From Escherichia phage vB_EcoM_phAPEC6, in sequence record MK817115.1: a stretch of 64,000 bases of DNA. One strand, 5' to 3'. The notes below the pieces were generated by a model that was given only the letters and a program-made list of their open reading frames with translations, did not search any database and was not told the DNA's origin. Made by a program: the position numbers and the translations under genes. Below are positions 813 to 63,320 of the stretch, one piece after another (the first letter of the stretch is position 1; each line of letters opens with the position of its first letter).

Positions 813-814
813 AC

Positions 815-15464: not shown

Positions 15465-15660
15465 TAACCCTCTTCTGTATTAGTTCCTGTAAGTGCTGAA
15501 TATAACCCTTCATTGCAACATCCTGTTTGTTAGAGCCAACGAAGAACAAGAGCTTAAAGTCATGGTAATCCATTTTTGGTTTAGTAGTGAACCATATGTC
15601 CCACACTGCACTCACAGTTCTCATGTATTCAATTCGATTAAATGTTTTTGAATACTTCAT
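15442..15660 (-). CDS. FamB-like small protein (divergent)
   Basis: FVGSNKQDVAMKGYI variant of FamB motif. Confidence 0.5.
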   Translation of the reverse strand: MKYSKTFNRIEYMRTVSAVWDIWFTTKPKMDYHDFKLLFFVGSNKQDVAMKGYIQHLQELIQKRVNENNRPR

Positions 15661-16620: not shown

Positions 16621-16925
16621 AATAATTCAACCACTCCATCTCTAAAGTACATATAACTACCACCATTGGATACTGTGAATTCTATTGTCCCCAATAATAT
16701 ATTATATTTTTTTATTTCACATGTAGTACTTGTAGTGTAAGGCTCACCATCTCCTAAGTACATTGACATATGACATAGAACTTTTCTACCAGCATATTTC
16801 TCTTCAAACGATTGTTCAAAACTATGCATAATTTGATTTAAAGCTGAAATGTAATTAATAAAGTCAGGTATTTCTGTCAATGAATTATAAACCGTACAAA
16901 GTGAATCAAATTCATTTTTAGTCAT
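16617..16925 (-). CDS. hypothetical protein
   Basis: ORF in array, no family motif. Confidence 0.5.
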   Translation of the reverse strand: MTKNEFDSLCTVYNSLTEIPDFINYISALNQIMHSFEQSFEEKYAGRKVLCHMSMYLGDGEPYTTSTTCEIKKYNILLGTIEFTVSNGGSYMYFRDGVVELL

Positions 16926-17239
16926 TATATTTCTATCTCAATGTAATCCTGTGTGATTAAGTAATCCCAATGATACTTCACCTGCTTTTGTAATTCAATT
17001 AACGTAAAGAAGTTGATCGATTTATCCCATACGAGCGATTCCTGGAAAATAAATGATTCATGTTCATCGTAATAATCACACTCTAAAAAATCAGGTATAT
17101 ATTCACTATCGTGAATGTATTCAACAAACGAACTAGCTTGGCATTTCTTTACTACTAGTAATAATGAATTATCATGATCAAACAGATACAATAAACTAAT
17201 TTCACCAGGGACGTACTGAACACTGAATAAGTTTTTCAT
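16925..17239 (-). CDS. FamA paralog
   Basis: core motif ESFIFQESLVW. Confidence 0.6.
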   Translation of the reverse strand: MKNLFSVQYVPGEISLLYLFDHDNSLLLVVKKCQASSFVEYIHDSEYIPDFLECDYYDEHESFIFQESLVWDKSINFFTLIELQKQVKYHWDYLITQDYIEIEI

Positions 17240-17688
17240 TCTATACCTTCTGGATCTTTACGAAGTTCTTCGAAATCCAAATAAAATCGAGGACAGTTAA
17301 CACTCTTTAAATACCACATAATAACTAATGCTTCAAGTACTTCATCATCGTAAACAGTACTGTTTTGGAAGTAATACTCTTCACTATCCCACGGACCATC
17401 CAGTACTTCATAATTCAAAATTAATGGTTTTTTGCGATTAATAAAACGAATGCTACCATTTTCAACATAACTAATAAATTCTGCATCTCTATTGTATTCA
17501 GAAAACGATATAGGACTATTGGAATTCAACCCAAGAATAACCCTTACACCAACGGAGTTATTATACATTTCATCTTTGTAGTAGTTGCCGTTCTCGGCTT
17601 TGTACACTTCTTTGAACTTTCCTGCCTTTATATCGTCAAAGTATCCATGTAGTTCTTTTGCTTTTTCAAGAGCACTTTGTAATGACAT
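17236..17688 (-). CDS. FamA1 subfamily paralog
   Basis: N-term MSLQSALEKAK, LDGPWDSEEYYFQNSTVY. Confidence 0.65.
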   Translation of the reverse strand: MSLQSALEKAKELHGYFDDIKAGKFKEVYKAENGNYYKDEMYNNSVGVRVILGLNSNSPISFSEYNRDAEFISYVENGSIRFINRKKPLILNYEVLDGPWDSEEYYFQNSTVYDDEVLEALVIMWYLKSVNCPRFYLDFEELRKDPEGIE

Positions 17689-18154
17689 TACCTTCTCCTA
17701 CAGTATTCTCTACATATTCATAATCAAAATAGAAACTACTGGAGTCAATACTTTTGAAATACCACATAATCACAATAACATCCAGTTCTTCTTCATTGTA
17801 CAACGTACTATTCTGGAAGTAATACTCTTCACTATCCCACGGACCTTCTAGTACTGAATAAGGAATGATAGTGTCATCAGCATCACTATCTGTGTTGTAG
17901 ATGGTAATATCTTCATTACGGCAATAACTAATGTACTGATTGTACATATGATATTCACAGTTATCACTGTCACCAGTATCAGTGTGCAGTACTAATGTTT
18001 CTGCACATATCTCGGACTCGTCATAATCGTCACGGTCTTTTACAAAAAATTCAGTATCAGATGTTTTATATACACCTGGAACTGAACCTTCTTGTACCAT
18101 AATCATATACTCATGAATCTTCTTTGCTTCTTTCAATGCACTTTGTAACGACAT
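17666..18154 (-). CDS. FamA1 subfamily paralog
   Basis: N-term MSLQSALKEAK, LEGPWDSEEYYFQNSTLY. Confidence 0.65.
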   Translation of the reverse strand: MSLQSALKEAKKIHEYMIMVQEGSVPGVYKTSDTEFFVKDRDDYDESEICAETLVLHTDTGDSDNCEYHMYNQYISYCRNEDITIYNTDSDADDTIIPYSVLEGPWDSEEYYFQNSTLYNEEELDVIVIMWYFKSIDSSSFYFDYEYVENTVGEGNVITKCS

Positions 18155-18597
18155 TACAAATCCCCTGAACTTAAATATTCACATGCTCCCCAGTCAAGAA
18201 AGAATGGTTCAAAATTCAATTCCTTAAAGTACCACAACACAACCAAGGAATCAAGCATTTCTTGGTTAAAAATGAAACTCTGTTGGAAGTAATACTCTTC
18301 AGTACCCCACGGGCCATCAAGTACCCCGAAGTCAACAGGTGCATTTGATGTGTCAAACGTAATCTTAGTACCTGGAATATATACAAAAAAACTAGTATAT
18401 TGACTACATGAAGAGTACTGTATAGTATTGTCTTTATCCTGTCCCATAAGTAAAATATCATCAGAGTATGTCTTTATACCTGATAGATAATACTCATCAC
18501 CAAATGCACTTACTTTATCACCATAGAACCCACTTTTTATGTTATCGTGGAAGTGATGTATTCTGTGTGCTAGTTCAAGTGCACTTGCTAAACTCAT
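18154..18597 (-). CDS. FamA1 subfamily paralog
   Basis: N-term MSLASALELAH, LDGPWGTEEYYFQQSFIF. Confidence 0.65.
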   Translation of the reverse strand: MSLASALELAHRIHHFHDNIKSGFYGDKVSAFGDEYYLSGIKTYSDDILLMGQDKDNTIQYSSCSQYTSFFVYIPGTKITFDTSNAPVDFGVLDGPWGTEEYYFQQSFIFNQEMLDSLVVLWYFKELNFEPFFLDWGACEYLSSGDL

Positions 18598-19064
18598 ATA
18601 TCCTCTTTAATAACTCGTAGTAGATCCAAGTCCAAATAGAAGCTAGGACAATCTGTATTATTAAAGTACCACAGAATGACAAGCTTGTCAAGTACATCTT
18701 CCTCGTAGATAGTATTCTGCTGGAAGTAGTACTCTTCACTTCCCCAGTCATTATCCAGTACTGAATACGGAAGATGTTTCTCTGCTGCACCAGATATAAT
18801 GTCAGAATCTTGTATTAAAATATCAGCATCACGACAGAAGTACATGTAATTATCTTCCAAATTAACATCACACCCATTGAGTGTTGTTTCAGAAGAATCT
18901 AAGTTTTCTTCATACATGTGAATGTACTCACTACTGTCATCGTATCTCATTCGACAATAAGATTTACCTTCCTTGAATAGATATCCATTGAGACAATTTG
19001 CTACAATTTCTTTGCTGCATAAATCAATTAACTTCGCAATCTCTAATGCTCTTTCTAAACTCAT
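18594..19064 (-). CDS. FamA1 subfamily paralog
   Basis: N-term MSLERALEIAK, LDNDWGSEEYYFQQNTIY. Confidence 0.65.
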   Translation of the reverse strand: MSLERALEIAKLIDLCSKEIVANCLNGYLFKEGKSYCRMRYDDSSEYIHMYEENLDSSETTLNGCDVNLEDNYMYFCRDADILIQDSDIISGAAEKHLPYSVLDNDWGSEEYYFQQNTIYEEDVLDKLVILWYFNNTDCPSFYLDLDLLRVIKEDI

Positions 19065-19065
19065 T

Positions 19066-19557
19066 TTAACCCCTGTTAATACCGTTATCTACAGTTTTCT
19101 TTACGTATTTGTAATCGAAATAGAAGTTCCCAGAACCAATACTTTTAAAGTACCACATAATTATAATAACATCAAGTACTTCATTATCGTATACAGTACT
19201 TTGTTGGAAGTAATACTCTTCACTATCCCACGGACCTTCCAGTACTTCACTCGGAATTATAATGTCATCGGAATCGCTATCAGTACTGTAGATGGTATCT
19301 GTATCATTAATATAGACCATGTACTCATTATGCATATTAATGAAGCATTCATAATCATTAGGGTCGGTATCCAGTACACACGTTTCTGTATCCAGTACGC
19401 ACGTTTCTGTATCTGAGCAGTCATTATAAAGGAGGTTATCCGGTACATAATATTGAGTACTTGTGTCTTTGAAAACACCGTAAACTGAACCTTCTTTTGC
19501 CATATTCATGTACTCATGAATCTTCTTTGCTTTTTCCAATGAACTCTGTAATGTCAT
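19066..19557 (-). CDS. FamA1 subfamily paralog
   Basis: N-term MTLQSSLEKAK, LEGPWDSEEYYFQQSTVY. Confidence 0.65.
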   Translation of the reverse strand: MTLQSSLEKAKKIHEYMNMAKEGSVYGVFKDTSTQYYVPDNLLYNDCSDTETCVLDTETCVLDTDPNDYECFINMHNEYMVYINDTDTIYSTDSDSDDIIIPSEVLEGPWDSEEYYFQQSTVYDNEVLDVIIIMWYFKSIGSGNFYFDYKYVKKTVDNGINRG

Positions 19558-19566
19558 TTTATAATC

Positions 19567-19926
19567 TCATATATTGAAATAATAATTATTCGTTCTTGAT
19601 GGGGATGGATTAAATACGTTTTCTTTTTCAAATCTCTTCATTTCATTTTGCAAAGAAACCATTTCTTCAAATGTACAGGAGTACTTATTCTTATCAAACA
19701 CTAATGCAGCCTGAAATAGTTCACCATCGTCCAGTACTGTATAATCTATAAGACTCTCAGATTCATAGTCATAGTCGTCATGTGATACATGAATAAATTT
19801 AAAACAAGAATCTTTGTAATGCATATATAAACTCAACTCATGTTCCGAGTCGCCCTTAATAAGATTACAGCACAAGTCCCATCCTTTAGGTAACTTATAA
19901 TAGTACATAGAATAATCATATGTCAT
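19567..19926 (-). CDS. FamA paralog (FDKKY subfamily)
   Basis: motif GELFQAALVFDKNKYSC. Confidence 0.6.
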   Translation of the reverse strand: MTYDYSMYYYKLPKGWDLCCNLIKGDSEHELSLYMHYKDSCFKFIHVSHDDYDYESESLIDYTVLDDGELFQAALVFDKNKYSCTFEEMVSLQNEMKRFEKENVFNPSPSRTNNYYFNI

Positions 19927-25840: not shown

Positions 25841-26160
25841 AAAATTACCTCAACTAAAGCAAGGACTGTATTGAATTCCACTATACTTGTAATTCCTTGA
25901 AGGTACATATACTTTGCTACTACATATTTCTGTACTAAATTATAATTATTAAATTCCTCAAAATTGTAATTTAGAACAAAATCTGTACTCAAAAATATCT
26001 TATGCATCTCTAATGCACTTTGATAATACGCGTACAACTCACTGATATCAATACTGGTTAAATTATATTGTTCATATCTATGATACGGGATGGCTTCAAT
26101 TTCAATACTATAAAACCATTCTCTTAACTTATTAATATCAAATGTATTATTCAGCTTCAT
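25819..26160 (-). CDS. hypothetical protein
   Basis: ORF in array, no motif. Confidence 0.5.
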   Translation of the reverse strand: MKLNNTFDINKLREWFYSIEIEAIPYHRYEQYNLTSIDISELYAYYQSALEMHKIFLSTDFVLNYNFEEFNNYNLVQKYVVAKYMYLQGITSIVEFNTVLALVEVILCSTCMI

Positions 26161-26713
26161 AACTCAATACCTCCATTAAACACTCATACACACCATCAAT
26201 CGCATAAGCACAAAAATTGAAATTAATTTTGTGATTCTTGTGTAATGGACTATTGTGTACTGTACTCATTATGACATTATAAAATAACAAACGCACTGGT
26301 ACAAGCATTGAACCTTGGAAAAATTCTTCCTCTGATTTATATGTATTGTACTCTATTGTTTTGTTCGTTTCTTTATCATATGTTACCATTACTAATGGGG
26401 CATTTTTATTATACCATGCGTACTCTAAATCATTCTTTCCAATAACAGCACCAGGTGCGAAATCCAAAAGACCAATAACACTACGGGAATTTGGGGTATC
26501 AGGTGTATTGAATCGTTTATCAAAATGACTCGTGCACGCAATATATGTATTGTACTTCGATGGAATAATACCAATACATTTGTGGAAATGACGCTTGTGA
26601 TATTTCTGGGCATTATATAAGGCTGCAACAATACAAGCTAACTTTTGTCCCATAAGGATTGCATTAGCGTAGGTGTACTGAATTTCATTGCTGGTACGGT
26701 ACTTCGAGGTCAT
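26147..26713 (-). CDS. FamA paralog
   Basis: core motif EEEFFQGSMLV. Confidence 0.6.
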   Translation of the reverse strand: MTSKYRTSNEIQYTYANAILMGQKLACIVAALYNAQKYHKRHFHKCIGIIPSKYNTYIACTSHFDKRFNTPDTPNSRSVIGLLDFAPGAVIGKNDLEYAWYNKNAPLVMVTYDKETNKTIEYNTYKSEEEFFQGSMLVPVRLLFYNVIMSTVHNSPLHKNHKINFNFCAYAIDGVYECLMEVLSYEAE

Positions 26714-30006: not shown

Positions 30007-30256
30007 ATTTCTCTTTATTAGCTTGTTTGGTTTTATAGTGAATTAAATCTATTAATGTAATCAAGTACAACGTCAAATAGTACTCTTGTTGATCTGTACC
30101 TAATGATACAAAGAACTTGTGCTCATAGATTAAAACCTGTTTCTCTTCAAATGGACATTTAATCCTCTGTATAGGCTTAAGTAAATGATAGTACTTATTA
30201 AATCTATGATACATTTCTAGTTCTGTCAGTACTTTCATATTAAACACATACTCCAT
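29996..30256 (-). CDS. FamB small protein
   Basis: motif SLGTDQQEYY; start of 28-gene tandem array. Confidence 0.55.
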   Translation of the reverse strand: MEYVFNMKVLTELEMYHRFNKYYHLLKPIQRIKCPFEEKQVLIYEHKFFVSLGTDQQEYYLTLYLITLIDLIHYKTKQANKEKYEN

Positions 30257-30461
30257 TAGCAGTAGCAGTACTTAAAGCACTCAAATACCTCTGTACGGCT
30301 TGCTCTTGATGATCTGTACCTAAAAGTATATACACCCATAATTCATTGTAGTGTACATCTTCTGTATAAGGGTTGTTGTAACTTTTTGATAATATAGCAT
30401 CAAATTCAGATGCATAATCCCTTGTGAACTTAAACATATCTTGTTGTGTTATGATTCTCAT
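30240..30461 (-). CDS. FamB small protein
   Basis: motif LLGTDHQEQAV. Confidence 0.6.
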   Translation of the reverse strand: MRIITQQDMFKFTRDYASEFDAILSKSYNNPYTEDVHYNELWVYILLGTDHQEQAVQRYLSALSTATANGVCV

Positions 30462-30673
30462 AACTTTTCCTGTATAAGCTTCTTAAGTATTTCTATGTGT
30501 GAATTAACAGTTCTTTCTTGATGCTGTGTTCCTAAGAGTGTCAGTACTATCATCTCTGAACGCAAAAGATTTTTTTCAAGTTCACTTATATCAGTTCTTG
30601 AATCAAGTGCCATATATTTGTGATTATTCTTCCTGAATAGTGCCAAGTACTCTTGATTTGATATTTCCTTCAT
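30458..30673 (-). CDS. FamB small protein
   Basis: motif LLGTQHQERTV. Confidence 0.6.
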   Translation of the reverse strand: MKEISNQEYLALFRKNNHKYMALDSRTDISELEKNLLRSEMIVLTLLGTQHQERTVNSHIEILKKLIQEKL

Positions 30674-30900
30674 AGTTTATTCCTGATGCCATTTAAAAGT
30701 GCTCTAATATGCTCATTGACAAATCGCTCTTGGGAATCTGTTCCTAGAGTGAGTAGCAATCTTAAATCTGAACTTTTGATGTGATATTCTAAATCATTCT
30801 TTGATTCTTGCATCAGTTTCTTAAAGGATGAGAAGTTTGCAGCCATTAGTTCAATGTATTCTGCTGTTCCTAGGGGTTTGTGTGTGTGCTGTCTGTGCAT
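30670..30900 (-). CDS. FamB small protein
   Basis: motif TLGTDSQERFV. Confidence 0.6.
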   Translation of the reverse strand: MHRQHTHKPLGTAEYIELMAANFSSFKKLMQESKNDLEYHIKSSDLRLLLTLGTDSQERFVNEHIRALLNGIRNKL

Positions 30901-31112
30901 TTTAATTGTATTACCCTTTTGAGTGTATTAATGTAATTATACACATTGGCTTCTTGATAGTTTGTTCCTAGAGTAGCTTGAACGTAGATTTCATTTAACT
31001 TAATAATTTTATCAGAATCTGGAAGTTTTGATGTGTTAATGGCAAATAACTTCGAAAACAGTCCATTTATGATTGTTAGGTATTCTACTTCGGTAATGAT
31101 TCGCATTTGCAT
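30870..31112 (-). CDS. FamB small protein
   Basis: motif TLGTNYQEANV. Confidence 0.6.
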   Translation of the reverse strand: MQMRIITEVEYLTIINGLFSKLFAINTSKLPDSDKIIKLNEIYVQATLGTNYQEANVYNYINTLKRVIQLKCTDSTHTNP

Positions 31113-31324
31113 TGGATAAACCTTTTTAGTTCATTGATGTAATCATTAATATTGCATTCTTGATAGTTAGTCCCTAGTGTAGCTTGAACATAGATTTCAC
31201 TTACTAGAATACTTATTTCATCATCTGGTAATTTCATGCTTTTTGTTATAAACAGCTTTAGAATTAAACTACTTAATAGTTGGTTGTATTCTGTGGGTGA
31301 AATGATTTTCATTTGCATTTGCAT
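31085..31324 (-). CDS. FamB small protein
   Basis: motif TLGTNYQECNI. Confidence 0.6.
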   Translation of the reverse strand: MQMQMKIISPTEYNQLLSSLILKLFITKSMKLPDDEISILVSEIYVQATLGTNYQECNINDYINELKRFIQCKCESLPK

Positions 31325-31530
31325 TTTCTCAGTACTGATTCTTTAAGTTCATTAATGTAGCACTCTACATATTCTTCTTGTAGGTTTGTTCCGATATGTA
31401 ACAGTACTCTTAAATCTGCTCTCAGTACTTCTTTATCATCTTCATCTATATCAGACAGTGTTATGTTTAAGAATTTACTTGAACTCTCTATAAGTAATAT
31501 TACTGAATCACCTTTGCTTAAAATTTTCAT
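31309..31530 (-). CDS. FamB small protein
   Basis: motif HIGTNLQEEYV. Confidence 0.6.
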   Translation of the reverse strand: MKILSKGDSVILLIESSSKFLNITLSDIDEDDKEVLRADLRVLLHIGTNLQEEYVECYINELKESVLRKCKCK

Positions 31531-31738
31531 AATCTCTTTTTGCTTTCCTCGCCAAAAGGTACATATACGATTCTTCGTATTGTGCTTGGTAGTTTGTGTT
31601 TAAGAGTCGAAACAACTTCTGTTCTGCTAGAACGAGTTGCTTATCTTCATAACAACGATAGCGTATCAACTTTTTGTATTCGATGTTGATTACATCCATT
31701 ACTATAAGCCCATGTTCATCATCTGTCAAGTGTTTCAT
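31508..31738 (-). CDS. FamB small protein
   Basis: motif LLNTNYQAQYE. Confidence 0.55.
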   Translation of the reverse strand: MKHLTDDEHGLIVMDVINIEYKKLIRYRCYEDKQLVLAEQKLFRLLNTNYQAQYEESYMYLLARKAKRDYENFKQR

Positions 31739-31977
31739 GCATTTTTTCTTTTTCTTATATGTTTAGTTAAAAGGTATATTAGTTTTCTATTGTATTCTTC
31801 CTGATAGTTTGTTCCTAATAGTGCAAGAAGTTTTGCTTCAACTAAAGCTAATTGACGTTCTTCAAATGTGTGTTCCAGTATGTACTTGGGGTTTGATTTT
31901 TTAGCGTAAGCACTATTAGTCTTCATTACAATCTTATGATATTCATTAGCAGTTAGGATTTTTAAATACTTGATCAT
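31735..31977 (-). CDS. FamB small protein
   Basis: motif LLGTNYQEEYN. Confidence 0.6.
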   Translation of the reverse strand: MIKYLKILTANEYHKIVMKTNSAYAKKSNPKYILEHTFEERQLALVEAKLLALLGTNYQEEYNRKLIYLLTKHIRKRKNA

Positions 31978-32197
31978 GTATCTTTTCCTTTATAGAGAAT
32001 TTAAGATATCGAAGCATACTTTCAATGTAATACTCTTGTCTGTCAGTGCCAAGAAAGTACATGAGTTGAATGTATAAAACTTCTGCACTCCTTTCCGCTG
32101 GAGACTTGTTTGTGTCGTTTGGAAGTTGATTTGTATGTTTTCTTGATTTAATTAGTCGTTCTTTTAACTCATCGTCTGTTAAGTATTTCATTTGCAT
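31946..32197 (-). CDS. FamB small protein
   Basis: motif FLGTDRQEYYI. Confidence 0.6.
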   Translation of the reverse strand: MQMKYLTDDELKERLIKSRKHTNQLPNDTNKSPAERSAEVLYIQLMYFLGTDRQEYYIESMLRYLKFSIKEKIHDQVFKNPNC

Positions 32198-32423
32198 TTA
32201 CTTTTTCCTTAATAGTGATTTTAAGATATCTAATCATACGTGCAACATATTCCTCTTGTCTATCAGTTCCCAGAAGATATGGTAGTGATTGGAATAATAC
32301 TTCTGCACTCCTTTCTGCTGGGGTTTGGTTTAGGTCAATTGGACGTTTATTGGTATATCTCTTGGCACGAACTAATCTCTCGACGTATTCATTATAGGTT
32401 AAGTATATCATTTCATTTTGCAT
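32169..32423 (-). CDS. FamB small protein
   Basis: motif LLGTDRQEEYV. Confidence 0.6.
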   Translation of the reverse strand: MQNEMIYLTYNEYVERLVRAKRYTNKRPIDLNQTPAERSAEVLFQSLPYLLGTDRQEEYVARMIRYLKITIKEKVNANEILNRR

Positions 32424-32643
32424 TTACTTTTTCCTTAATACTCATTATAAGATGTTCAATCATATTTTGAACCATAAATTCTTGTTTATCAGTTCCAAGA
32501 ACGTATGGTAGCTTCTGAAACAATACATTTGCAGATACTTCAGATATTGATTGATTTGGACCGAACTTAAGAGTAATGTTTTTGGTTTTTAACATCTTCT
32601 CTTGAAATTCTTCATTCGTTAAGTATATCATTTCATTTTGCAT
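32413..32643 (-). CDS. FamB small protein
   Basis: motif VLGTDKQEFMV. Confidence 0.6.
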   Translation of the reverse strand: MQNEMIYLTNEEFQEKMLKTKNITLKFGPNQSISEVSANVLFQKLPYVLGTDKQEFMVQNMIEHLIMSIKEKVNAK

Positions 32644-32859
32644 TTACATTCTCTCATATATATTTTGGGTTAAAAGGTCAATCCAGATTTCCACATATCG
32701 TTGTTGGTGTTGCGTCCCTAACAGTACACCCAACTTAGCTTCACACTCTAATAACAATCTGGTTTTGTATGGTAGACTTTGGAATCCTATAGTAGCATCT
32801 AATTTGGTAATTGCATAGTTGATTCGGATGAATCTTTCTTGCAATGTGATGTTGATCAT
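32644..32859 (-). CDS. FamB small protein
   Basis: motif LLGTQHQQRYV. Confidence 0.6.
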   Translation of the reverse strand: MINITLQERFIRINYAITKLDATIGFQSLPYKTRLLLECEAKLGVLLGTQHQQRYVEIWIDLLTQNIYERM

Positions 32860-33119
32860 TTCTTAGTACACCTCAGTGGTTGGGTCATTTGATGAAAGTA
32901 CAGCTTACCTCTGATTTCCAGTAGCAACTCCGCGATTAAGCGATTTACTTCTGTATCTTGATAGTTTGTTCCTAAGAATACACCCATCTTTAACTCACGC
33001 ATCATAATCATTTTCTTACTGTGTTGAATTTCTGGGTTGTGATAGATTGTATTACGTTTGTGCGTAATTTTTGTCATACGCTCGGTATATTCATCTTTAC
33101 TTAAATTGATCATTTGCAT
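32856..33119 (-). CDS. FamB small protein
   Basis: motif FLGTNYQDTEV; start at Met10 (MQMINLSKDEY) behind GAGG RBS, track ORF to 33146. Confidence 0.55.
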   Translation of the reverse strand: MQMINLSKDEYTERMTKITHKRNTIYHNPEIQHSKKMIMMRELKMGVFLGTNYQDTEVNRLIAELLLEIRGKLYFHQMTQPLRCTKK

Positions 33120-33148
33120 GTTCATCAACCTCACATTTATTTTCAATA

Positions 33149-33388
33149 CTATTCTTTAGTTTGTAGATATAGTTTTCTTCCAATATATCTCTTAAGTGCG
33201 ATTATGTATTCATCTACATAATACTCCTGATAGTTTGTTCCTATGAATGCACCCACCTTTAACTCAAGTTTCATAATCATCTTATTTCCGTGTTTAATGA
33301 CTTCTCCGTGATGGATTTCATTAAGTCCAGGTGCAATTTTTACCAGGCGTTCTTTATATTTTGCTTGAGATAATTTAATCATTTTCAT
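33149..33388 (-). CDS. FamB small protein
   Basis: motif FIGTNYQEYYV; start at Met10 (MKMIKLSQ) behind AAGGG RBS, track ORF to 33415. Confidence 0.55.
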   Translation of the reverse strand: MKMIKLSQAKYKERLVKIAPGLNEIHHGEVIKHGNKMIMKLELKVGAFIGTNYQEYYVDEYIIALKRYIGRKLYLQTKE

Positions 33389-33389
33389 G

Positions 33390-33620
33390 TTAATTACCCT
33401 TACATTTATTTTCAATACTATTCATGAGTTCTATAAGATAGTTTTCTACCTTACCTTCCTGATAGTTAGTCCCTAGGAAGTTGCACAACACGGCTTCTAT
33501 GATTTTGATTTTCCTGATATCAGGCTTCAATCTTTTGTTATTGAATATTTGAATCCTTATATCTCTGGATGCATTTAAACGTTTTTGATATTCATGGTAA
33601 GTTAAATTAATCATTTTCAT
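33390..33620 (-). CDS. FamB small protein
   Basis: motif FLGTNYQEGKV. Confidence 0.6.
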   Translation of the reverse strand: MKMINLTYHEYQKRLNASRDIRIQIFNNKRLKPDIRKIKIIEAVLCNFLGTNYQEGKVENYLIELMNSIENKCKGN

Positions 33621-33835
33621 TTACGTTTAACCTCTCGCTGGAGGGCATCAATTAACATCAGTACAGCATTCTCTTGATAGTTTGTTCCTAAGACTGAAAG
33701 CATCTTTATCTCATTTACTAAAATCAACTTCTTTGAGGGTTCAATAATGTGACTATCATAAACGGCCTTACGTGCTGGATAAGTTTTCGCCAGTATAACA
33801 TAAAATTCGTCTTTACTTAAATTAATCATTTGCAT
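33617..33835 (-). CDS. FamB small protein
   Basis: motif VLGTNYQENAV; AAGAGG RBS 9 nt upstream of ATG. Confidence 0.6.
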   Translation of the reverse strand: MQMINLSKDEFYVILAKTYPARKAVYDSHIIEPSKKLILVNEIKMLSVLGTNYQENAVLMLIDALQREVKRK

Positions 33836-34044
33836 TTACTTTTAACCTCTTTCTGTAGAGCGTCAATCCATAGATCCACATACATTTGTTGATAGTTTGT
33901 GCCTAAGAGTGCACCTACATAGAGTTCAGTTACTAGTGCGTGCTTAAGGTTAGCTTGGATGCTCTTATCGCTTGATAAGATTTTCCTTCTGCTGGTGCAT
34001 GTTTTCAGGAGTCTGATGTATTCAAAGCCTTGTAAATTTCTCAT
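33826..34044 (-). CDS. FamB small protein
   Basis: motif LLGTNYQQMYV. Confidence 0.6.
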   Translation of the reverse strand: MRNLQGFEYIRLLKTCTSRRKILSSDKSIQANLKHALVTELYVGALLGTNYQQMYVDLWIDALQKEVKSKCK

Positions 34045-34256
34045 ATTTTGGATACCACCTTGTTACGTAAGGCACTTAACAATACGTCAGTGTAGATGTT
34101 TTGATAGTTTGTCCCTACGAAAGCACCCAACTTCATTTCAGCTATTATAACACATTTGTCCTCTTGTGCAATAGATTTGTTTAACACAATACTATACACT
34201 TTTGATTTGATAGTTTGTAACCTCCAATGATACTGAAACTCATTTAGTGTTATCAT
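34041..34256 (-). CDS. FamB small protein
   Basis: motif FVGTNYQNIYT. Confidence 0.6.
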   Translation of the reverse strand: MITLNEFQYHWRLQTIKSKVYSIVLNKSIAQEDKCVIIAEMKLGAFVGTNYQNIYTDVLLSALRNKVVSKI

Positions 34257-34491
34257 TCTCTCGTCTCCATATCTCGGTTCTAATGTGTTGACATTGTGCT
34301 TCGATGAACATATCTATTGATTTGGCAATTGCTTTTTTATCAGTGCCTGTCATCAGTACAAGCATCTCTGCCTCACTATGAATTAAACGCATGATATCAT
34401 AGGGTAATATTTCAGATACAGTGTCATAGTGTTTCTGTGCCAGTGTCTGTAATAGTTTACAATACATTTTGTGATTTAGTCTGTGTCGCAT
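34240..34491 (-). CDS. FamB small protein (divergent)
   Basis: motif variant LMTGTDKKAIA. Confidence 0.5.
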   Translation of the reverse strand: MRHRLNHKMYCKLLQTLAQKHYDTVSEILPYDIMRLIHSEAEMLVLMTGTDKKAIAKSIDMFIEAQCQHIRTEIWRRENDNTK

Positions 34492-34748
34492 TGTTTATTC
34501 CATTCTCTTCTGGCTTGACGGGTTTTATCTGATATTTCGTTTCTCAATGCAGCGATATATCGTAGAGTGAACAGTTCTTGATAGTTAGTCCCTATGAATT
34601 TATTAAGATATACATCAGCGTTGACGATATCAGCTTCACGGGAATTATAAAGTTTATTGTTCGTGCGGAGGGTGTTTAGAAGAGAGAAGAGGGCAGTCTG
34701 ATACTCCACTCCTGATAAAATCTTCATGTTTTGTGAGCAAATAATCAT
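34476..34748 (-). CDS. FamB small protein
   Basis: motif FIGTNYQELFT; true start probably Met8 near 34727. Confidence 0.55.
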   Translation of the reverse strand: MIICSQNMKILSGVEYQTALFSLLNTLRTNNKLYNSREADIVNADVYLNKFIGTNYQELFTLRYIAALRNEISDKTRQARREWNKQCDTD

Positions 34749-34968
34749 CTAGTTTATCCTGTATAACATTCGTTAATTGTTCGATATATTCTGTGCAAAA
34801 CTTATCTTGATATTGAGTCCCCATAAAGTACAGCAACCATAGCTCATTAACTTTAGCTCGCATTTGGTTCCATGTAAGGCTGGGGTCACCGTAGACTATC
34901 CTTGTGATGGGGGTTAGTTTACGAATTATAGTTTCAAATTCATCATCAGTTAAGTGTTTCATTTGCAT
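34654..34968 (-). CDS. FamB small protein with 3' extension
   Basis: motif FMGTQYQDKFC; ORF continues ~30 codons past the usual family C-terminus and overlaps downstream gene out of frame. Confidence 0.5.
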   Translation of the reverse strand: MQMKHLTDDEFETIIRKLTPITRIVYGDPSLTWNQMRAKVNELWLLYFMGTQYQDKFCTEYIEQLTNVIQDKLDDYLLTKHEDFIRSGVSDCPLLSSKHPPHEQ

Positions 34969-35177
34969 TTGTCCCTTATTAAATCAGTGAGGGCAACTAT
35001 GTGTGCAACAACATACTCTTCCTGAAAGTTCGTCCCCAGTACAGCCATCATGCGTATATCGGTGGTGTTTATCCTGTGTTCCCTTACACATAAACCTTCT
35101 GTGTGAGGAAGTGTAAAATATTTGTTTATTGCAGCAACGATAATTTTATTCTTCTCGGAGTTACTTAAATGTTTCAT
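34959..35177 (-). CDS. FamB small protein
   Basis: motif VLGTNFQEEYV. Confidence 0.6.
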   Translation of the reverse strand: MKHLSNSEKNKIIVAAINKYFTLPHTEGLCVREHRINTTDIRMMAVLGTNFQEEYVVAHIVALTDLIRDKCK

Positions 35178-35386
35178 AGTTTACTCCTGATATAATTCTG
35201 AAGTGCAATTAAGTATTCCCCTACATAATACACCTGAAAGTCTGTATCAAGGAATGCACCCATAAGTAAATCTTTTTCTAATACCCTTGATAAGTTAAGG
35301 TCTGCATTTGAAAGGTATATAAGTAAGATTTCACCCTGTGCGGAATTGAAACGTTTCTTATATTCTTCTGGTGTTAAAAAAATCAT
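35174..35386 (-). CDS. FamB small protein
   Basis: motif FLDTDFQVYYV. Confidence 0.55.
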   Translation of the reverse strand: MIFLTPEEYKKRFNSAQGEILLIYLSNADLNLSRVLEKDLLMGAFLDTDFQVYYVGEYLIALQNYIRSKL

Positions 35387-35598
35387 AATTTGCTCCTGAT
35401 ATATTTCTCAAGAGATGACAAATACTTTTCCTCATAATACTTCTGATAGTCTGTTCCTAAGAATGCACCCAATAGTATATCATTTTCCAATACCTCGGCT
35501 AAGTTTAAATCAGAAGTCTCTTCGTATATTATGAGGATTTCAAGTTGTCTGGCAGCGATGCGTTCAGTATATTGATATGAGTTTTCTATAATAATCAT
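35383..35598 (-). CDS. FamB small protein
   Basis: motif FLGTDYQKYYE. Confidence 0.6.
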   Translation of the reverse strand: MIIIENSYQYTERIAARQLEILIIYEETSDLNLAEVLENDILLGAFLGTDYQKYYEEKYLSSLEKYIRSKL

Positions 35599-35804
35599 AA
35601 TTTACTCTTTATATCTTGAATTAAAAATCGAATCCATTCTTCAACATAATCTTCCTGATGGTTTGTGTTCAGTACAGCCAACATGCGGATCTCTGCTCTT
35701 GCAACTTCAATTTCAGTTTTAGGAAGGTCTTTGCTGATATCCACCATTAAGTCCATGTATTTCAAGATAAGACCGTATGATTGGGTTCGTGTTATAGTTT
35801 TCAT
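35595..35804 (-). CDS. FamB small protein
   Basis: motif VLNTNHQEDYV. Confidence 0.55.
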   Translation of the reverse strand: MKTITRTQSYGLILKYMDLMVDISKDLPKTEIEVARAEIRMLAVLNTNHQEDYVEEWIRFLIQDIKSKL

Positions 35805-36001
35805 TGTTTCCTCGTGGACAATATTTTATTTTTCAATGTATCCATATATTGAATCACCCATCTTTCCTGATAGTTAGTTCCCAAAGTAATCAAAAGGTAT
35901 AACTCCATTCGTTCTACGTGTGTGTCTGTATTATAAATCTTTGTGAAGTTTTTACGTAACAGTGATTGATATTCTTCTTTATTTAAAATACGCATTTTCA
36001 T
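35801..36001 (-). CDS. FamB small protein
   Basis: motif TLGTNYQERWV. Confidence 0.6.
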   Translation of the reverse strand: MKMRILNKEEYQSLLRKNFTKIYNTDTHVERMELYLLITLGTNYQERWVIQYMDTLKNKILSTRKQ

Positions 36002-36195
36002 AGTTTACTCGTTATATCTTCAATTAAATACCAAATCCAATCGTTGACATACCTTTCCTGAAAGTTAGTTCCAATGAATAGTGCCATAATTAATTCACGC
36101 TTATAGGCAATACCACGGTCATGGGACTTATACATTATCATAGCCATGTTATTGATAAGTCTTTCGTGGTGCTGTTCTTTAGTTAAAATACGCAT
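35998..36195 (-). CDS. FamB small protein (first gene of array)
   Basis: motif FIGTNFQERYV; start at Met11 behind AAGGGAG RBS (track ORF to 36225). Confidence 0.55.
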   Translation of the reverse strand: MRILTKEQHHERLINNMAMIMYKSHDRGIAYKRELIMALFIGTNFQERYVNDWIWYLIEDITSKL

Positions 36196-36225
36196 AGGGA
36201 CTCCCTTAAAATTATTATCGATCAT

Positions 36226-37649: not shown

Positions 37650-37790
37650 AGTTCCACCAGCAGATAGTTACTCACCGTTATTAACTATATATTTTGGATA
37701 CACTCCTGCACCCAGTGGGCTAGTTTTTGTCTATGCGTATATAATAGCAAAGGGACTGACCGGAGTCAATCCCTTTTTTATTCTTTTTTG
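37650..37790 (+). ncRNA. conserved intergenic element, candidate small RNA with bidirectional terminator (copy 1)
   Basis: GATACAC..GCACCCAGTGGGC core, TATAATAG box, GGGACTGACCGGAGTCAATCCC hairpin flanked by A-run and T-run. Confidence 0.3.
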
Positions 37791-38708: not shown

Positions 38709-38972
38709 TTATGCAAGTACTTTTTTCATATAAACATTAAATTCTACACCGCCGTAACCTTCTACGATGATATGTTTTGCGTTATCACGTTTGCACATAG
38801 TGAAACCGTTGTTGATGTGTTCTGCATTTTCCAGGGCGACATCACCGATAGCGGCACATACGGCACTAATAACAGTATTCCGCAAAGTACTGGTATCATT
38901 AGCGGTCATAGTAGTTTGCAGTACTACGTTGTCGTATACGTGTGCATTGATAGTGATTTCGATAGTGTTCAT
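38709..38972 (-). CDS. hypothetical protein
   Basis: ORF-track ORF; cassette with AGGAGA RBS upstream. Confidence 0.55.
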   Translation of the reverse strand: MNTIEITINAHVYDNVVLQTTMTANDTSTLRNTVISAVCAAIGDVALENAEHINNGFTMCKRDNAKHIIVEGYGGVEFNVYMKKVLA

Positions 38973-39058
38973 GGTGTATCTCCTGCACAGTCGGGAGAAC
39001 TATTCCCCCGCTCTATGTAAAACATTATACGTTAATCTAACTACAATGCAAGTACTTT
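38973..39058 (-). promoter_or_regulatory. promoter / 5' stem-loop / RBS cassette
   Basis: TTGCAT-16-TATAAT, then CGGGGGAATAGTTCTCCCG hairpin, AGGAGA RBS. Confidence 0.6.
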
Positions 39059-39250
39059 TTAAATTTTATTTCCGATATAGTCCGGTCTATTCTTTTCGGT
39101 CATACGCTTTGCTAATGTTTGCATATGGCTTATTGCGTTTAATGTGTCTTCCTCCAGGGATGAATCAACATAATCAGGATCATTCTTCACCTTGCAATGA
39201 TTATGATAGCGTAGTACTGCCAGTACTTTTTTAACTTCTTCTACTGTCAT
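39059..39250 (-). CDS. hypothetical protein
   Basis: ORF-track ORF; overlaps start of upstream gene (operon). Confidence 0.5.
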   Translation of the reverse strand: MTVEEVKKVLAVLRYHNHCKVKNDPDYVDSSLEEDTLNAISHMQTLAKRMTEKNRPDYIGNKI

Positions 39251-39914: not shown

Positions 39915-40056
39915 ATCAAATACTTTAAAATAGTTTTCAGTACTGAATACTTATATAATAGATACACTTATGCACCCTGTGGGTCAGTGAGTTATCTCTC
40001 AATGAATATATATTAGCAAAGGGACTGACCGGAGTCAATCCCTTTTTTAATCTTTT
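39915..40056 (+). ncRNA. conserved intergenic element, candidate small RNA with bidirectional terminator (copy 2)
   Basis: near-identical to copy 1: TATAATAGATACACTTATGCACCCTGTGGG ... GGGACTGACCGGAGTCAATCCC T-run. Confidence 0.3.
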
Positions 40057-40641
40057 TTATCGTGTTATAGTTACGGCTTTTACATCACGCTTTTTATAGT
40101 ACTGATTCCAGATATTGCGGGTTAAACCGTAATCAAGTACTTTAATAAGTCCATTACGATCCTGGCCGATATTCTGTTTTCTGATATCTCTTATCGTTAG
40201 TGTTGATAATGTATCATCGACGTGTTGTAGTGCATCAGCAAAGCGGTGCTGGCGTTCAATGGCATTACGTTTAATATTGTACTTTAATTCGTTGCACGCG
40301 TTAACGTGCTTCACACTGCCTTTACTTGCAGTACTCAACCGATCCATAACGATAAACATATTATCAGGATCGCATAAATGCATATGCACCTTTGCAAAGT
40401 ACTGTTTCAATTGAGGGCGGTCATAGTCTAAAAAATTCCATACCTTACATTCAGTTTCATTTTGTTCTACACCCGCATCACAATTGGCGACCTTAATCAC
40501 TAACCGATCATTTAAAGCGAATACGATACGGGAAGAACCCGCCCCGATGATCTCCAGGCCAGCTAACCGACAAGCTGAAAGGATCTCTTTGTTGGTTTCC
40601 ATTTCTGACAGTGTACGGATGAATTTAGTATAATTACGCAT
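40057..40641 (-). CDS. putative protein kinase (Hanks-type catalytic motifs)
   Basis: Gly-rich loop IGAGSSRIVF, VIKV lysine, catalytic loop RDIRKQN, DFG-like LDYG; start at Met20 behind AAGGAGA RBS. Confidence 0.6.
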   Translation of the reverse strand: MRNYTKFIRTLSEMETNKEILSACRLAGLEIIGAGSSRIVFALNDRLVIKVANCDAGVEQNETECKVWNFLDYDRPQLKQYFAKVHMHLCDPDNMFIVMDRLSTASKGSVKHVNACNELKYNIKRNAIERQHRFADALQHVDDTLSTLTIRDIRKQNIGQDRNGLIKVLDYGLTRNIWNQYYKKRDVKAVTITR

Positions 40642-40672
40642 TGCATGTTCTCCTTGAGTTAATGAAACTATC

Positions 40673-40915
40673 TTACAGTACTTTACTATCAATGGCAACC
40701 ACTTTTTTCACACTAACCGCGTGAATCACTTCCTTAGTGTTTTTAGTACTGAATACTTTCGCTGTTCCTTGTTCTACTGCAATGCGATAACGACCGTTAA
40801 CATCAACCATATTAATAAAGTCCGGTGTACTAAACCGAGTAGTACGGCATTTCAGTACTGTTAACAATTCCACCAGCGATGTAGTTTCTTTGATACGTTT
40901 TTCTAAAGTAATCAT
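40673..40915 (-). CDS. hypothetical protein
   Basis: ORF-track ORF; TTGACA promoter-like site upstream. Confidence 0.5.
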   Translation of the reverse strand: MITLEKRIKETTSLVELLTVLKCRTTRFSTPDFINMVDVNGRYRIAVEQGTAKVFSTKNTKEVIHAVSVKKVVAIDSKVL

Positions 40916-40973
40916 TTTGTTTTCCCCCGTGTTGGTATGTACATATAGTACTAAAACATTTGAGTACTGTCAA

Positions 40974-43250: not shown

Positions 43251-43356
43251 TAGCCACCAGCATATAATAGATACATTTATGCACCCTGTGGGTTAGATTG
43301 TTTCTATGCATATATAATAGCAAAGGGACTGACCGGAGTCAATCCCTTTTTTAAAT
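43245..43356 (+). ncRNA. conserved intergenic element, candidate small RNA with bidirectional terminator (copy 3)
   Basis: same core and terminator hairpin as copies 1 and 2. Confidence 0.3.
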
Positions 43357-43360
43357 CTTT

Positions 43361-43510
43361 TTAAACTTGTTTTGGGTTGCGATATGTGATAGCGTTCGGG
43401 TACATTTGTTTAATGTTATTCCATGCCTGGTTAACATTGTAACCACTTGATCGAATCAGTTGGTTACTTCCTACGCCCTGAAACACTACTTCGAATAAGA
43501 ATTCTTTCAT
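43361..43510 (-). CDS. small hypothetical protein (49 aa)
   Basis: hand-translated ORF, ATGA overlap with upstream gene; below track cutoff. Confidence 0.35.
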   Translation of the reverse strand: MKEFLFEVVFQGVGSNQLIRSSGYNVNQAWNNIKQMYPNAITYRNPKQV

Positions 43511-46564: not shown

Positions 46565-46690
46565 TTTTAAAAATAGTTTTCAGTACTCAATACTTATATA
46601 ATAGATACACTTATGCACCCGGTGGGCTAGTGAGCTATCTCTCAATGAATATATAATAGCAAAATGGCTGACCGAAGTCAACCACTTTTT
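46565..46690 (+). ncRNA. conserved intergenic element, candidate small RNA with bidirectional terminator (copy 4)
   Basis: same architecture, hairpin variant GGCTGACCGAAGTCAACC. Confidence 0.3.
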
Positions 46691-46694
46691 TCAT

Positions 46695-46829
46695 TTATTT
46701 TTTAGCTTTCAGTACTGCCGCCTTTCGCGTCATGCCTTGCTTAATGTACTCCTTTACTTTCGCTTTACGTGCTTTCGCTTTATCTGCTTTCGTTTTAGGA
46801 GTACTGTAAATTAAACCGTTAGGATTCAT
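46695..46829 (-). CDS. small lysine-rich hypothetical protein (44 aa)
   Basis: hand-translated ORF. Confidence 0.35.
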   Translation of the reverse strand: MNPNGLIYSTPKTKADKAKARKAKVKEYIKQGMTRKAAVLKAKK

Positions 46830-60899: not shown

Positions 60900-60956
60900 G
60901 GATGTCAAGGGTTTTCTTTATGGGGTAAATATGATATAATGAATAAGGAGGGATTT
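60900..60956 (+). promoter_or_regulatory. promoter-like region and RBS for first RCC1-like gene
   Basis: TATAAT box then AAGGAGG RBS 5 nt before ATG; -35 not obvious; same block repeated before the two downstream paralogs. Confidence 0.4.
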
Positions 60957-62105
60957 ATGTTACCTTTTGCAAGAATGATTAAGTACGGGAATATTGCCCC
61001 TGGTGATGATGGACGTTTTAAAATATATTCCAGTGATTCCATGTATCTTCATGATACTTATACTGATAAGTTGTATGCATCTTCTGCGACGAATTGGGGT
61101 ACTGGTACAGGTGTAGCATCGAGTAAATTTATTCTTTGTGCGGAGAATGTTAAACGAGTTCTATTGGAAGATAACAGTAGTGATTGTCAATTGTACGAAG
61201 AGAAAGGTACGGGAAAAGTTTTTATCACTGGCAACACGAAGGCATTCACTGGTGTAACTGATAGAAAAACTTTGTGGACGGACTGTACTACATGGATAAC
61301 ATCAGGTGGTATTAATGTTTCTGATATAAAATACATGAGTAGTTTTTATGATATGAAGGTGAATTTGATAACAAACGATGGTACATTGTATTGTTGTGGA
61401 GCTAACAATATATCGAACATATCATCATTTGGTGATGGCACAAACATTAATTCTTTTAACACATTCAAAAGAGTAGATACTATAACTTCGGTTAAAAAGG
61501 CAGTTGGTAACATTTATTTGCGAGAAGATAATACTTTATGGGGTTGTGGTTTTAACTATTACTACCAGTTGGGTACGGGTAATCAAACTTCTATTACTGG
61601 GGTGACGATGATTTCTTCGGATGTTATAGATTTTAATGTAAGTTATCAGAGTACATTTTTTATCAAATCGGATAATAATTTGTACGCTTGTGGTAAACAG
61701 TTCGGTGCACAATATGGGAACGAATTTGGTACAGGTGGTACTTCTACATCTACAGATATACAATATAAAACTCCGACATTATTGAGTTCAGGAGTTTATA
61801 CTCTATATACTTGTGTTGGTAACATGGCATCACATATTGTCAAAGCAGATGAAGTTCTATATGCTTCTGGAACGAATGGGTTTGGGCAATTAGGTGTTGG
61901 TAATAATAATAATCAGTACTCCTATACTCCTTCTTATACTTCTTTTAATAGTTCGTGTGATTTGGTACGCAGTCCATCTGGATCACTTATACTTACGGAT
62001 ACTGGAAAATTATATTATTGTGGCATTGCAATAGTAGTAATGGGTGGTATTTCTGGACAGAACGTTCTTAATTATACAGAAGTAGATATGTCATTTATAC
62101 AATGA
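60957..62105 (+). CDS. RCC1-like repeat (beta-propeller) protein, FamD copy 1
   Basis: repeated LWGCGFNYYYQLGTGN, LYASGTNGFGQLGVGN blocks; start at MLPFARMIKYGN behind AAGGAGG (track ORF begins 18 nt upstream). Confidence 0.6.
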   Translation: MLPFARMIKYGNIAPGDDGRFKIYSSDSMYLHDTYTDKLYASSATNWGTGTGVASSKFILCAENVKRVLLEDNSSDCQLYEEKGTGKVFITGNTKAFTGVTDRKTLWTDCTTWITSGGINVSDIKYMSSFYDMKVNLITNDGTLYCCGANNISNISSFGDGTNINSFNTFKRVDTITSVKKAVGNIYLREDNTLWGCGFNYYYQLGTGNQTSITGVTMISSDVIDFNVSYQSTFFIKSDNNLYACGKQFGAQYGNEFGTGGTSTSTDIQYKTPTLLSSGVYTLYTCVGNMASHIVKADEVLYASGTNGFGQLGVGNNNNQYSYTPSYTSFNSSCDLVRSPSGSLILTDTGKLYYCGIAIVVMGGISGQNVLNYTEVDMSFIQ

Positions 62106-62113
62106 ATTAATAT

Positions 62114-62142
62114 GCCAGTACTTGATACTGGCTTTTCTTTTT
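62114..62142 (+). terminator. rho-independent terminator
   Basis: GCCAGTA-CTTGA-TACTGGC hairpin followed by TTTTCTTTTT. Confidence 0.6.
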
Positions 62143-62177
62143 GTATTAAATATAGTATAATGAATAAAGGAGGAATT

Positions 62178-63320
62178 ATGTTACCTTTTGCAAGAATGGT
62201 TAAGTACGGGAATATTGCACCTGCACAAATCGGTAGATATAAAATATACAGTTCATCTTCTTCACTATTTTTATTGGATACCCAAAAACACAATTTGTAC
62301 AGTACATCGAACATTAATTATACTAGTGGTACAGGTAATGTTGAGCCTAAATTTGTGTTAAGTGCAACTAATGTTAAAAGATTATTACTATCTGATAATA
62401 GTTGTGCAATGCAAATATATGAAGATATGAATGGGCGTGCAGCGATGTGTGGCACAAGAACTGCATATAGTGGGGTTGCAAATGATAATGTACTGGTATG
62501 GACGGATTGCACTACATGGTTCACAAATGTAGGGTTGAATGTATCAGATATTCAGTACATGTCTGGTTTTTATAATCTGAAACTAAACATAGTTATGAAT
62601 AATGGTGATTTGTGGTGTAGTGGGAAAAACAACACTACTACTATGTCATCATTTGGTAATAGCACAAATATCGATTCATTCAATCAGTTTACCAAAATAA
62701 CAACAATATCAAATGTTATTAAAGCCACCGGGAATATATACTTATGTGCAGATAATACTTTATGGGGATGTGGTTTTAACTCTTACTATCAGTTAGGGAC
62801 AGGTAATCAAACATCCAGTATTAATTTGATTATGATGGCTTCTAATGTTATCGACTGTAATGTTGGTCTTCAAAATACTTATTACTTGACTAATAATAAA
62901 GAACTTTATGGATGTGGTACACAATTTGGTACAACTTACGGGAATGAATTTGGAACAGGAAGGCAGGGAACATCAATACAATATAAGACTCCTACTATAA
63001 TTTTCACAAATGCAGATGGTCTGGCTGTTTGTGTCGGTAATATGTCTACTCATGTTATTCAATATGATAAAGTTTTTAGTTCTGGTAATAATGCCCTTGC
63101 ACAGTTGGGTGTAGGCAACCGTGACAATGTGTACACATATACACAATCATTTGATAATTTCAAAATGGATTCTTCTATAGTACGTGCAAACGTTGGAACA
63201 TTGATAATGACAGCGGACAATAAGTTATATTACAGTGGGAGAAATGATGTTGTTATGGGTGGAACAAGCACACAATACACGACGGTTTTCAGTGAAGTTA
63301 ATATGTCATTTATACAATGA
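62178..63320 (+). CDS. RCC1-like repeat protein, FamD copy 2
   Basis: same N-terminus MLPFARMVKYGN and C-terminus EVNMSFIQ as copy 1; LWGCGFNSYYQLGTGN; start behind AAGGAGG. Confidence 0.6.
   Translation: MLPFARMVKYGNIAPAQIGRYKIYSSSSSLFLLDTQKHNLYSTSNINYTSGTGNVEPKFVLSATNVKRLLLSDNSCAMQIYEDMNGRAAMCGTRTAYSGVANDNVLVWTDCTTWFTNVGLNVSDIQYMSGFYNLKLNIVMNNGDLWCSGKNNTTTMSSFGNSTNIDSFNQFTKITTISNVIKATGNIYLCADNTLWGCGFNSYYQLGTGNQTSSINLIMMASNVIDCNVGLQNTYYLTNNKELYGCGTQFGTTYGNEFGTGRQGTSIQYKTPTIIFTNADGLAVCVGNMSTHVIQYDKVFSSGNNALAQLGVGNRDNVYTYTQSFDNFKMDSSIVRANVGTLIMTADNKLYYSGRNDVVMGGTSTQYTTVFSEVNMSFIQ

Follow-up and report, generated by a model that had tools for sequence, protein, structure and literature searches.

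A 194-residue kinase-like protein, in which all catalytic residues are kept and the back half of a normal kinase domain is missing, is encoded in a 64,000-nucleotide stretch of Escherichia phage vB_EcoM_phAPEC6 (MK817115.1; the whole stretch analysed is referred to as the window). On the combined evidence given below, it is probably an early effector protein kinase with a minimal kinase-like fold, acting on a substrate that we infer to be protein.

The 194-aa reading frame at 40057–40641 was confirmed as originally predicted, and was assigned to the minus strand, which the prediction had not stated. The gene and its flanking signals are as follows.

40057..40641 (stop codon included), minus strand: coding sequence of the 194-aa minimal kinase-like protein, from the reading-frame list and orthologues
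40650..40655, minus strand: Shine-Dalgarno sequence AAGGAG, 8 nt 5′ of the ATG, read from the sequence
40673..40915, minus strand: 80-aa reading frame 5′ of the kinase gene, with which it shares a predicted transcription unit as the leading gene
40945..40973, minus strand: sigma70-type promoter TTGACA-17-TACTAT, preceding the 80-aa reading frame and the kinase gene
40018..40045, minus strand: stable hairpin, probable terminator with a weak U-tail, just 3′ of the kinase stop codon

The ATG lies at 40641–40639 on the minus strand, and the stop codon ends at 40057. A longer version with a TTG start (40698, 213 aa) was rejected as unsupported, since every orthologue begins at the same Met. The kinase gene comes second in this predicted two-gene unit, which ends at the hairpin (−21.4 kcal/mol, z −4.8); in a repeat copy at 46.5 kb, two compensatory changes preserve the stem of this hairpin. 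The upstream 80-aa reading frame gave a weak match only in Salmonella phage SE_PL and no match in RaK2, Kaldavass or CBB, and since it is therefore not a conserved partner, a two-component system was rejected. A search for a paralogue of the kinase gene within the 64-kb window found none.

The setting of the gene is of early type, in agreement with the original prediction. Sigma70-like promoters numbered 36 on the gene strand vs 1 on the other, with less than 1 expected by chance. They fall into two classes (TACTTGCA-N15-18-TATAAT and TTGACA-N16-18-TAYWAT, with 18 + 18 minus-strand matches), class A promoters having an invariant AAAAAGTACTTGCA...GTATAATGTTTTA core, and most lie between 37 and 56 kb (e.g. 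39908, 40973, 43216 and 46562, minus strand). In relatives, the kinase gene is located inside annotated direct terminal repeats, at 16,690–17,274 within the repeat 1–21,525 of vB_Ec-M-J, and at 16,233–16,823 within the repeat 1–19,736 of Klebsiella phage fENko-Kae01. This location was thus seen in two genera; a gene in the direct terminal repeat is therefore present twice per genome, and two copies were found in records that span both repeats. The related phage PA5oct relies on host RNA polymerase (PMC7318152). Given the dense sigma70-type promoters, the hairpin-closed two-gene unit and the terminal-repeat position in relatives, the kinase gene is very probably expressed early.

Further repeated elements were recorded around these promoters. 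Class A promoters are followed by a conserved 5′-UTR hairpin (GGGGGAAATGGTTCTCCC) immediately before the Shine-Dalgarno sequence, which could be a translational or RNA-stability element. An intergenic cassette of ~100–135 nt, present at 39924–40058, 46567–46701, 43262–43362 and 37689–37789 with 64–88% identity, consists of the terminator hairpin and a conserved CCCACAGGGTGCATAA block, and shows compensatory changes in the stem; the terminator hairpin itself includes a promoter-like TTGACT-17-TAATAT match. A 155-aa plus-strand reading frame (38767–39234) and others with 'TISPS.CKTLYLILSTMQVLF' were rejected as artefacts, being minus-strand promoter cassettes read on the wrong strand.

Sequence searches placed the product within a large family with a remote kinase signal. 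Using HMMER, the single sequence matched Pfam Pkinase (PF00069) at 17.9 bits (E 0.002, cut-off 31.7), with residues 46–181 aligned to model positions 26–152 of 263, and matched phrog_4301 ('unknown function') over its full length (E 7.9e-42, residues 3–188); the distant relatives P0042, P0079 and P0084 also matched phrog_4301. An indexed search returned 13 close homologues, and an exhaustive profile search returned 2,065 cluster representatives (E<=1e-3), the majority of them stand-alone proteins 180–250 aa long. When the family profile was compared with the PDB, residues 29–182 were in register with the MKK7/MKK4 kinase domains (E 2e-4), a match that improved to E 1e-5 with a broader family profile. 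The catalytic positions line up with those of MKK4/7, CDPK and PKA, E64 corresponding to the αC Glu of CDPK, and the motifs line up with solved kinases at subdomains I, II, VIb and VII; the lack of such an alignment, which had been named as a refuting outcome, was thus not seen. In a Pfam scan of 55 members, Pkinase was the commonest match (11/55, best E 5.7e-6), followed by ABC1 (6), and no APH, choline-kinase, RIO1, Kdo or Kae1-associated kinase model was matched. A curated bacterial or defence family was rejected, as the kinase matches in NCBIfam and PADLOC (PknB, PD-T4-6) were all generic and far below threshold. Pkinase is the only consistent family-level sequence signal, alongside eukaryote-like protein kinases of the PDB; this similarity is remote, and alone cannot separate protein kinases from small-molecule or RNA kinases.

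For structure prediction, an AlphaFold run with 12 close homologues gave a pLDDT of 49 and the model was discarded; a 55-sequence alignment was needed, producing a model with a pLDDT of 94.2 and a pTM of 0.90. Structure searches with this model returned protein-kinase-like folds only, the best PDB chain having a TMq of <=0.47, and the non-kinase fold that had been named as a refuting outcome was not seen. The model comprises two N-terminal helices, β1-Gly loop-β2, β3 (K50), a long αC (E64) and β5/hinge, then two helices equivalent to αD and αE, the catalytic loop, β7–β8, DYG, a helix at 175–182 and the C-terminus. It thus has the features of the protein-kinase-like (PKL) superfamily, namely a bilobal fold, a five-stranded N-lobe with αC, a hinge, and catalytic and metal-binding loops, and with this confident prediction the kinase fold assignment is firm. 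The shortness of the protein and the possible loss of C-lobe elements, both noted in the original prediction, were also borne out: the C-terminus lies 22 residues past D170, the only element after DYG is the helix at 175–182, and subdomains VIII–XI are absent (APE/activation segment, P+1 loop, αF DxWxxG, αG–αI and the subdomain XI Arg). Many relatives stop 13–15 residues beyond DYG. The description as Hanks-type accordingly stands at superfamily level only, and fails at family level, where the Pkinase match is sub-threshold and subdomains VIII–XI are lacking.

The four motifs that had been proposed, IGAGSSRIVF (32–41), VIKV (48–51), RDIRKQN (151–157) and LDYG (169–172), are present in that order and beyond chance. 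The corresponding positions are given below, with conservation figures from 191 full-length domains aligned to the family model.

40528..40545, minus strand: glycine-rich loop G33-A-G35-S36-S-R38, subdomain I; G35 96%
40492..40494, minus strand: K50 of VIKV, β3 ATP-binding lysine, subdomain II; 100% conserved
40450..40473, minus strand: start of helix αC, G57/Q60/N61 and E64 (αC glutamate, subdomain III); E64 99.5%
40171..40191, minus strand: catalytic loop R151-D152-I-R-K-Q-N157, subdomain VIb; D152 97%, the remainder Glu
40126..40134, minus strand: D170-Y-G172, the DFG equivalent, subdomain VII; D and G 100%

Within these motifs, the Gly loop, K50, D152 and D170 proved to be family-conserved, whereas the R of 'RD' and N157 are variable. 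R151 is replaced by Gly in 49% of the family, and the N157 position is N, H, S or Q in the wider family, the Mg-binding Asn being H, S or Q in two thirds. The catalytic loop has no HRD His and does not fit HRDLKxxN, and the Lys that Ser/Thr kinases carry two residues past the catalytic Asp is not conserved here (K155, only 23%). The Tyr of DYG is Y in 75% and F in 16% of the family. Near-invariants specific to the family are R38 (GxGSSR), which stands at the third Gly of the glycine-rich loop and is 99% conserved, G57/Q60/N61 at the start of αC, and G159. Since K50, E64, D152 and D170 are 97–100% conserved, the protein is predicted to be an enzyme and not a pseudokinase, and the pattern argues for that of an active enzyme. 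Classification as a putative non-RD kinase fits the missing activation loop.

The 3 kb around the kinase gene is 92–95% identical to the Asteriusvirus E. coli jumbo phages slurp01, 121Q, PBECO4, G17 and Sharanji, and the kinase protein is 100% identical in phages slurp01 and UB. A related-locus search with a narrow alignment returned a single locus, phage 121Q itself, and relatives were located by tblastn against phage records and by contig look-ups. The Sharanji orthologue, gp063 (WNN14351.1), is the subject of one sentence in the paper on that phage, as 'another protein kinase, which function is unknown' (PMC11895373). A few GenBank records of the gene are labelled 'serine/threonine-protein kinase' or 'putative protein kinase' and the majority 'hypothetical protein'; the kinase label thus pre-exists as automated annotation, and the kinase call itself is not new or surprising. 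A literature search found no experimental or biochemical work on any member of the phrog_4301 family, and the kinase is not mentioned in the phAPEC6 proteomics paper (virion packaging in Asteriusvirus was examined).

Among sequenced phages, the gene was found only in RaK2-like jumbo phages of Enterobacterales and Xanthomonas, and metagenomic relatives lie on contigs of 100–350 kb carrying T4-like or jumbo-phage genes. With about 2,000 clusters, phrog_4301 is a large family without a Pfam model or a characterised member. A constant neighbour gene was sought among the family loci sampled and none was found; the neighbourhoods of individual members, identified by locus, were as follows.

L014/L019 (one lineage) and L011: RNA-repair genes
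L017 and L018: DNA-replication block
L016: tail and baseplate genes
L013: capsid and GmrSD genes

In the metagenomic T4-like contigs L014 (6001–9967) and L019 (6001–11941), a Pnkp-like kinase/CPDase comes directly after the family member, and T4 RNA ligase 1 genes, in L014 also NUDIX, lie farther downstream; this arrangement may reflect a functional RNA-repair link, or mere co-location in an accessory region. In Pectobacterium phage CBB (L010, 2374–3483), the adjacent paralogues CBB_444 and CBB_445 lie inside a six-tRNA-gene cluster. Fused or tandem domains were found in the metagenomic relatives P0134, P0111, P0021 and P0023: the kinase domain occurs within a 3,248-aa tape-measure/minor-tail protein (at 857–1032), together with GNAT, 2H-phosphoesterase and CCA-adding domains in a protein of 2,130 aa, and as tandem domains with 2–4 copies per reading frame, 3–4 of them complete in frames of 693–923 aa. 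P0111 looks like a polyvalent effector protein. Paralogue expansion, polyvalent fusion and fusion to an ejected virion protein are marks of phage-host conflict effectors (PMC5512222).

The mechanism that we propose is modelled on the kinase of phage T7 (T7 gp0.7, hereafter T7K). Host sigma70 RNA polymerase would transcribe the gene from its consensus-like promoter right after DNA entry. The protein would bind Mg-ATP through the Gly loop, K50–E64 and D170, with D152 as the presumptive catalytic base for phosphate transfer. Since there is no activation segment, the kinase would be constitutively active, and since there is no P+1 or αG docking surface, its sequence specificity would be low. It may then phosphorylate many host (possibly also phage) proteins on Ser/Thr/Tyr early in infection, as does T7K, and by analogy with T7 gp0.7 would be a takeover or anti-defence effector.

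Several other readings of the same evidence were weighed. An RNA- or tRNA-directed kinase, phosphorylating an RNA hydroxyl, for example to mark or protect tRNA or as a step of RNA repair against host anticodon nucleases, would account for the RNA-repair neighbours of some distant family members, for the CBB paralogues inside a tRNA cluster and for the presence of ArkI among the structural matches. Large phages often carry RNA-repair genes in their accessory regions, and for that reason proximity to such genes counts little. Moreover, four further contexts are unrelated to RNA (DNA replication, tail/baseplate, capsid/GmrSD), tRNA genes are absent from the 64-kb window and RNA-repair genes from the vicinity of the kinase, ArkI ranks under about 30 other listed matches, mostly protein kinases, and P0111 fits the polyvalent pattern, a class that mixes unrelated activities (PMC5512222); an RNA or tRNA substrate is on this balance unlikely. 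A small-molecule kinase of the aminoglycoside-phosphotransferase type, acting on a metabolite, an antibiotic-like compound or an immune signalling nucleotide, is suggested by APH-like structural matches. APH-type enzymes bind their substrate through a C-terminal helical subdomain, and it is this substrate-binding subdomain that is missing here. APH, choline-kinase, Kdo and RIO models were matched by 0/55 members compared with 11/55 for Pkinase, and the nearest characterised viral neighbours are protein kinases, which makes this reading improbable.

The protein could also bind ATP without being a kinase, as a pseudokinase or scaffold, or with another chemistry (AMPylation as in SelO, glutamylation as in SidJ). 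The extra near-invariants around the active site (R38, and G57/Q60/N61 on αC), the non-conserved metal-binding Asn and the unusual missing C-lobe point in this direction. Pseudokinases usually lose the catalytic K/E/D/D set, and that set is 97–100% conserved in the family; T7K is truncated in the same way and is highly active as a kinase (PMC13645617), and we regard a non-kinase role as very unlikely. A chance resemblance of motifs on an unrelated fold, for which the sub-threshold single-sequence Pfam match might speak, is effectively refuted by a confident model that matches kinase-fold proteins and by motif residues that are the invariant positions of a family with about 2,000 clusters. Finally, the protein may combine the smallest catalytic kinase fold (about 165–175 residues, counted from the Gly loop to the C-terminus) with a second lineage of phage effector kinases and an RNA, tRNA or immune-signal target, and so represent a new class of counter-defence enzyme; phages would then deploy such kinases as terminal-repeat genes, as multi-kinase proteins with tandem domains and even within tape-measure proteins that are ejected. 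As a whole we think this combination has little chance of being right, and the evidence favours a protein substrate over RNA/tRNA or an immune signal. An early effector protein kinase is thus the preferred reading.

Other features of the window were recorded separately. At 30240–36225 on the minus strand lies an array of about 27 back-to-back paralogous genes (66–104 aa, mostly with overlapping stop/start codons), with a shared C-terminal core like 'LGTNYQE..V..YI..L...I..K'; the DNA repeat families D3, D7 and D13 are the coding repeat of this array. About 35 consecutive reading frames of 150–207 aa, many abutting or overlapping, occupy 1–28000 on the minus strand, a pattern that points to additional large arrays of paralogues; the frame at 26147–26713 belongs to phrog_19795. 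On the plus strand, 60939–62105 and 62112–63320 are adjacent RCC1-repeat ('regulator of chromosome condensation') paralogues of phrog_4219, and in Sharanji this pair stands at the head of about a dozen consecutive genes on one strand, all alike in size (gp106–117).

A 2026 study of T7K reported that a truncated, unregulated phage kinase disarms many bacterial defence systems, and left the generality of this open. The present family is a second one, sequence-separate from T7K, with the same truncated architecture and widespread in large phages; RaK2-like jumbo phages hold its gene in a region present at both genome ends. It bears on how general early phosphorylation is as a means of takeover or anti-defence, and on the minimum kinase fold needed for catalysis. 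With the broad anti-defence action of T7K only recently demonstrated, members of this family are well worth experimental study, and jumbo coliphages of the Asteriusvirus group are phage-therapy candidates, in which early effectors are of practical value.

Among known systems, Hanks-type kinases (PF00069; PknB, MKK4/7) share with the jumbo-phage kinase subdomains I–VII in order and the same catalytic residues, and gave the best sequence-level matches; they differ from it in having subdomains VIII–XI, the HRD His/Arg and the conserved Lys past the Asp. Rio, Bud32/PRPK and archaeal ArkI retain C-lobe helices equivalent to αF and αI, and their biological roles are unrelated to that of the jumbo-phage kinase. 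Comparison with APH, ChoK and MTR kinases gave no family-profile match, and the C-terminal helical subdomain is absent, so that the similarity is structural only; one distant member matched NCBIfam APH(2'') at 14 bits vs a cut-off of 625.

Kinase-PolyVal (PF18762) is a domain of the Ser/Thr/Tyr-kinase superfamily that has lost its entire C-terminal subdomain and kept its active-site residues (Iyer et al. 2017, PMC5512222). In phages it is found stand-alone or within giant multidomain proteins, and its predicted role is the modification of host proteins (PMC5512222). The jumbo-phage family is alike in that the C-terminal subdomain is gone with the active site intact, and in that it too occurs inside giant proteins. 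It differs in lacking the Kinase-PolyVal signatures (Glu before strand 2, Gln in the last N-lobe strand and a His-Asp insert) and in host range, which for Kinase-PolyVal is Verrucomicrobia, Chlamydia and Bacteroidetes. The jumbo-phage kinase had no match to PF18762 at E<=10, and one relative, CBB_445, matched at E 0.021 (15.3 bits vs a cut-off of 27).

T7K (Pfam PF27024), whose kinase domain spans residues 1–242 with DPV at 213–215, is an experimentally proven hyper-promiscuous protein kinase (PMC13645617). The parallel with T7 gp0.7 drawn in the original prediction was borne out as a remote relationship, between separate PHROG families. The jumbo-phage kinase matched none of the T7K PHROGs (phrog_2828/15752/18305) at E<=1, whereas T7K and Sharanji gp144 matched them at 1e-46 to 1e-169. 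Using hhalign, single T7K-type sequences gave a probability of about 2%, and a 6-sequence T7K profile gave 61% (E 8e-5, 140 columns in register), with the Gly loops, VIKV/VIKV, and D152/N157/D170 aligned to T7K D195/N200/D213. In a viral structure library, family members in RaK2 and CBB ranked first, followed by annotated phage protein kinases including the T7K type (TMq 0.53–0.58, E about 1e-5 to 1e-6), which exceeds the value reached by any PDB chain. Both are phage-encoded genes of early type under host RNA polymerase, as we infer for the jumbo-phage kinase, both kinase cores end about 22–27 residues past the DFG-equivalent Asp, and both are non-RD with no activation segment. In contrast, T7K has DPV where the jumbo-phage kinase has DYG; the latter is without the C-terminal shut-off/DNA-binding domain and has signatures of its own (GxGSSR, QNxxE), and its activity is predicted whereas that of T7K is proven. 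Sharanji gp144 (L005, 4183–4857) is a separate T7K-family kinase (224 aa, phrog_15752, E 1e-97), and this Asteriusvirus T7K-like protein stops about 19 residues past its 'DP'. Asteriusviruses thus carry two predicted truncated kinases, whose families are distinct in sequence, and since the same phages also carry the T7K-like kinase, two early kinases may be in use.

Judged by profile matches, the jumbo-phage kinase belongs to phrog_4301, and falls outside the T7K family, the Kinase-PolyVal profile and Pfam Pkinase. T7K and Kinase-PolyVal already provide precedent for phage kinases without a C-lobe, and the jumbo-phage kinase represents, in our reading, a family apart, which shares the design of T7K and is remotely related to it.
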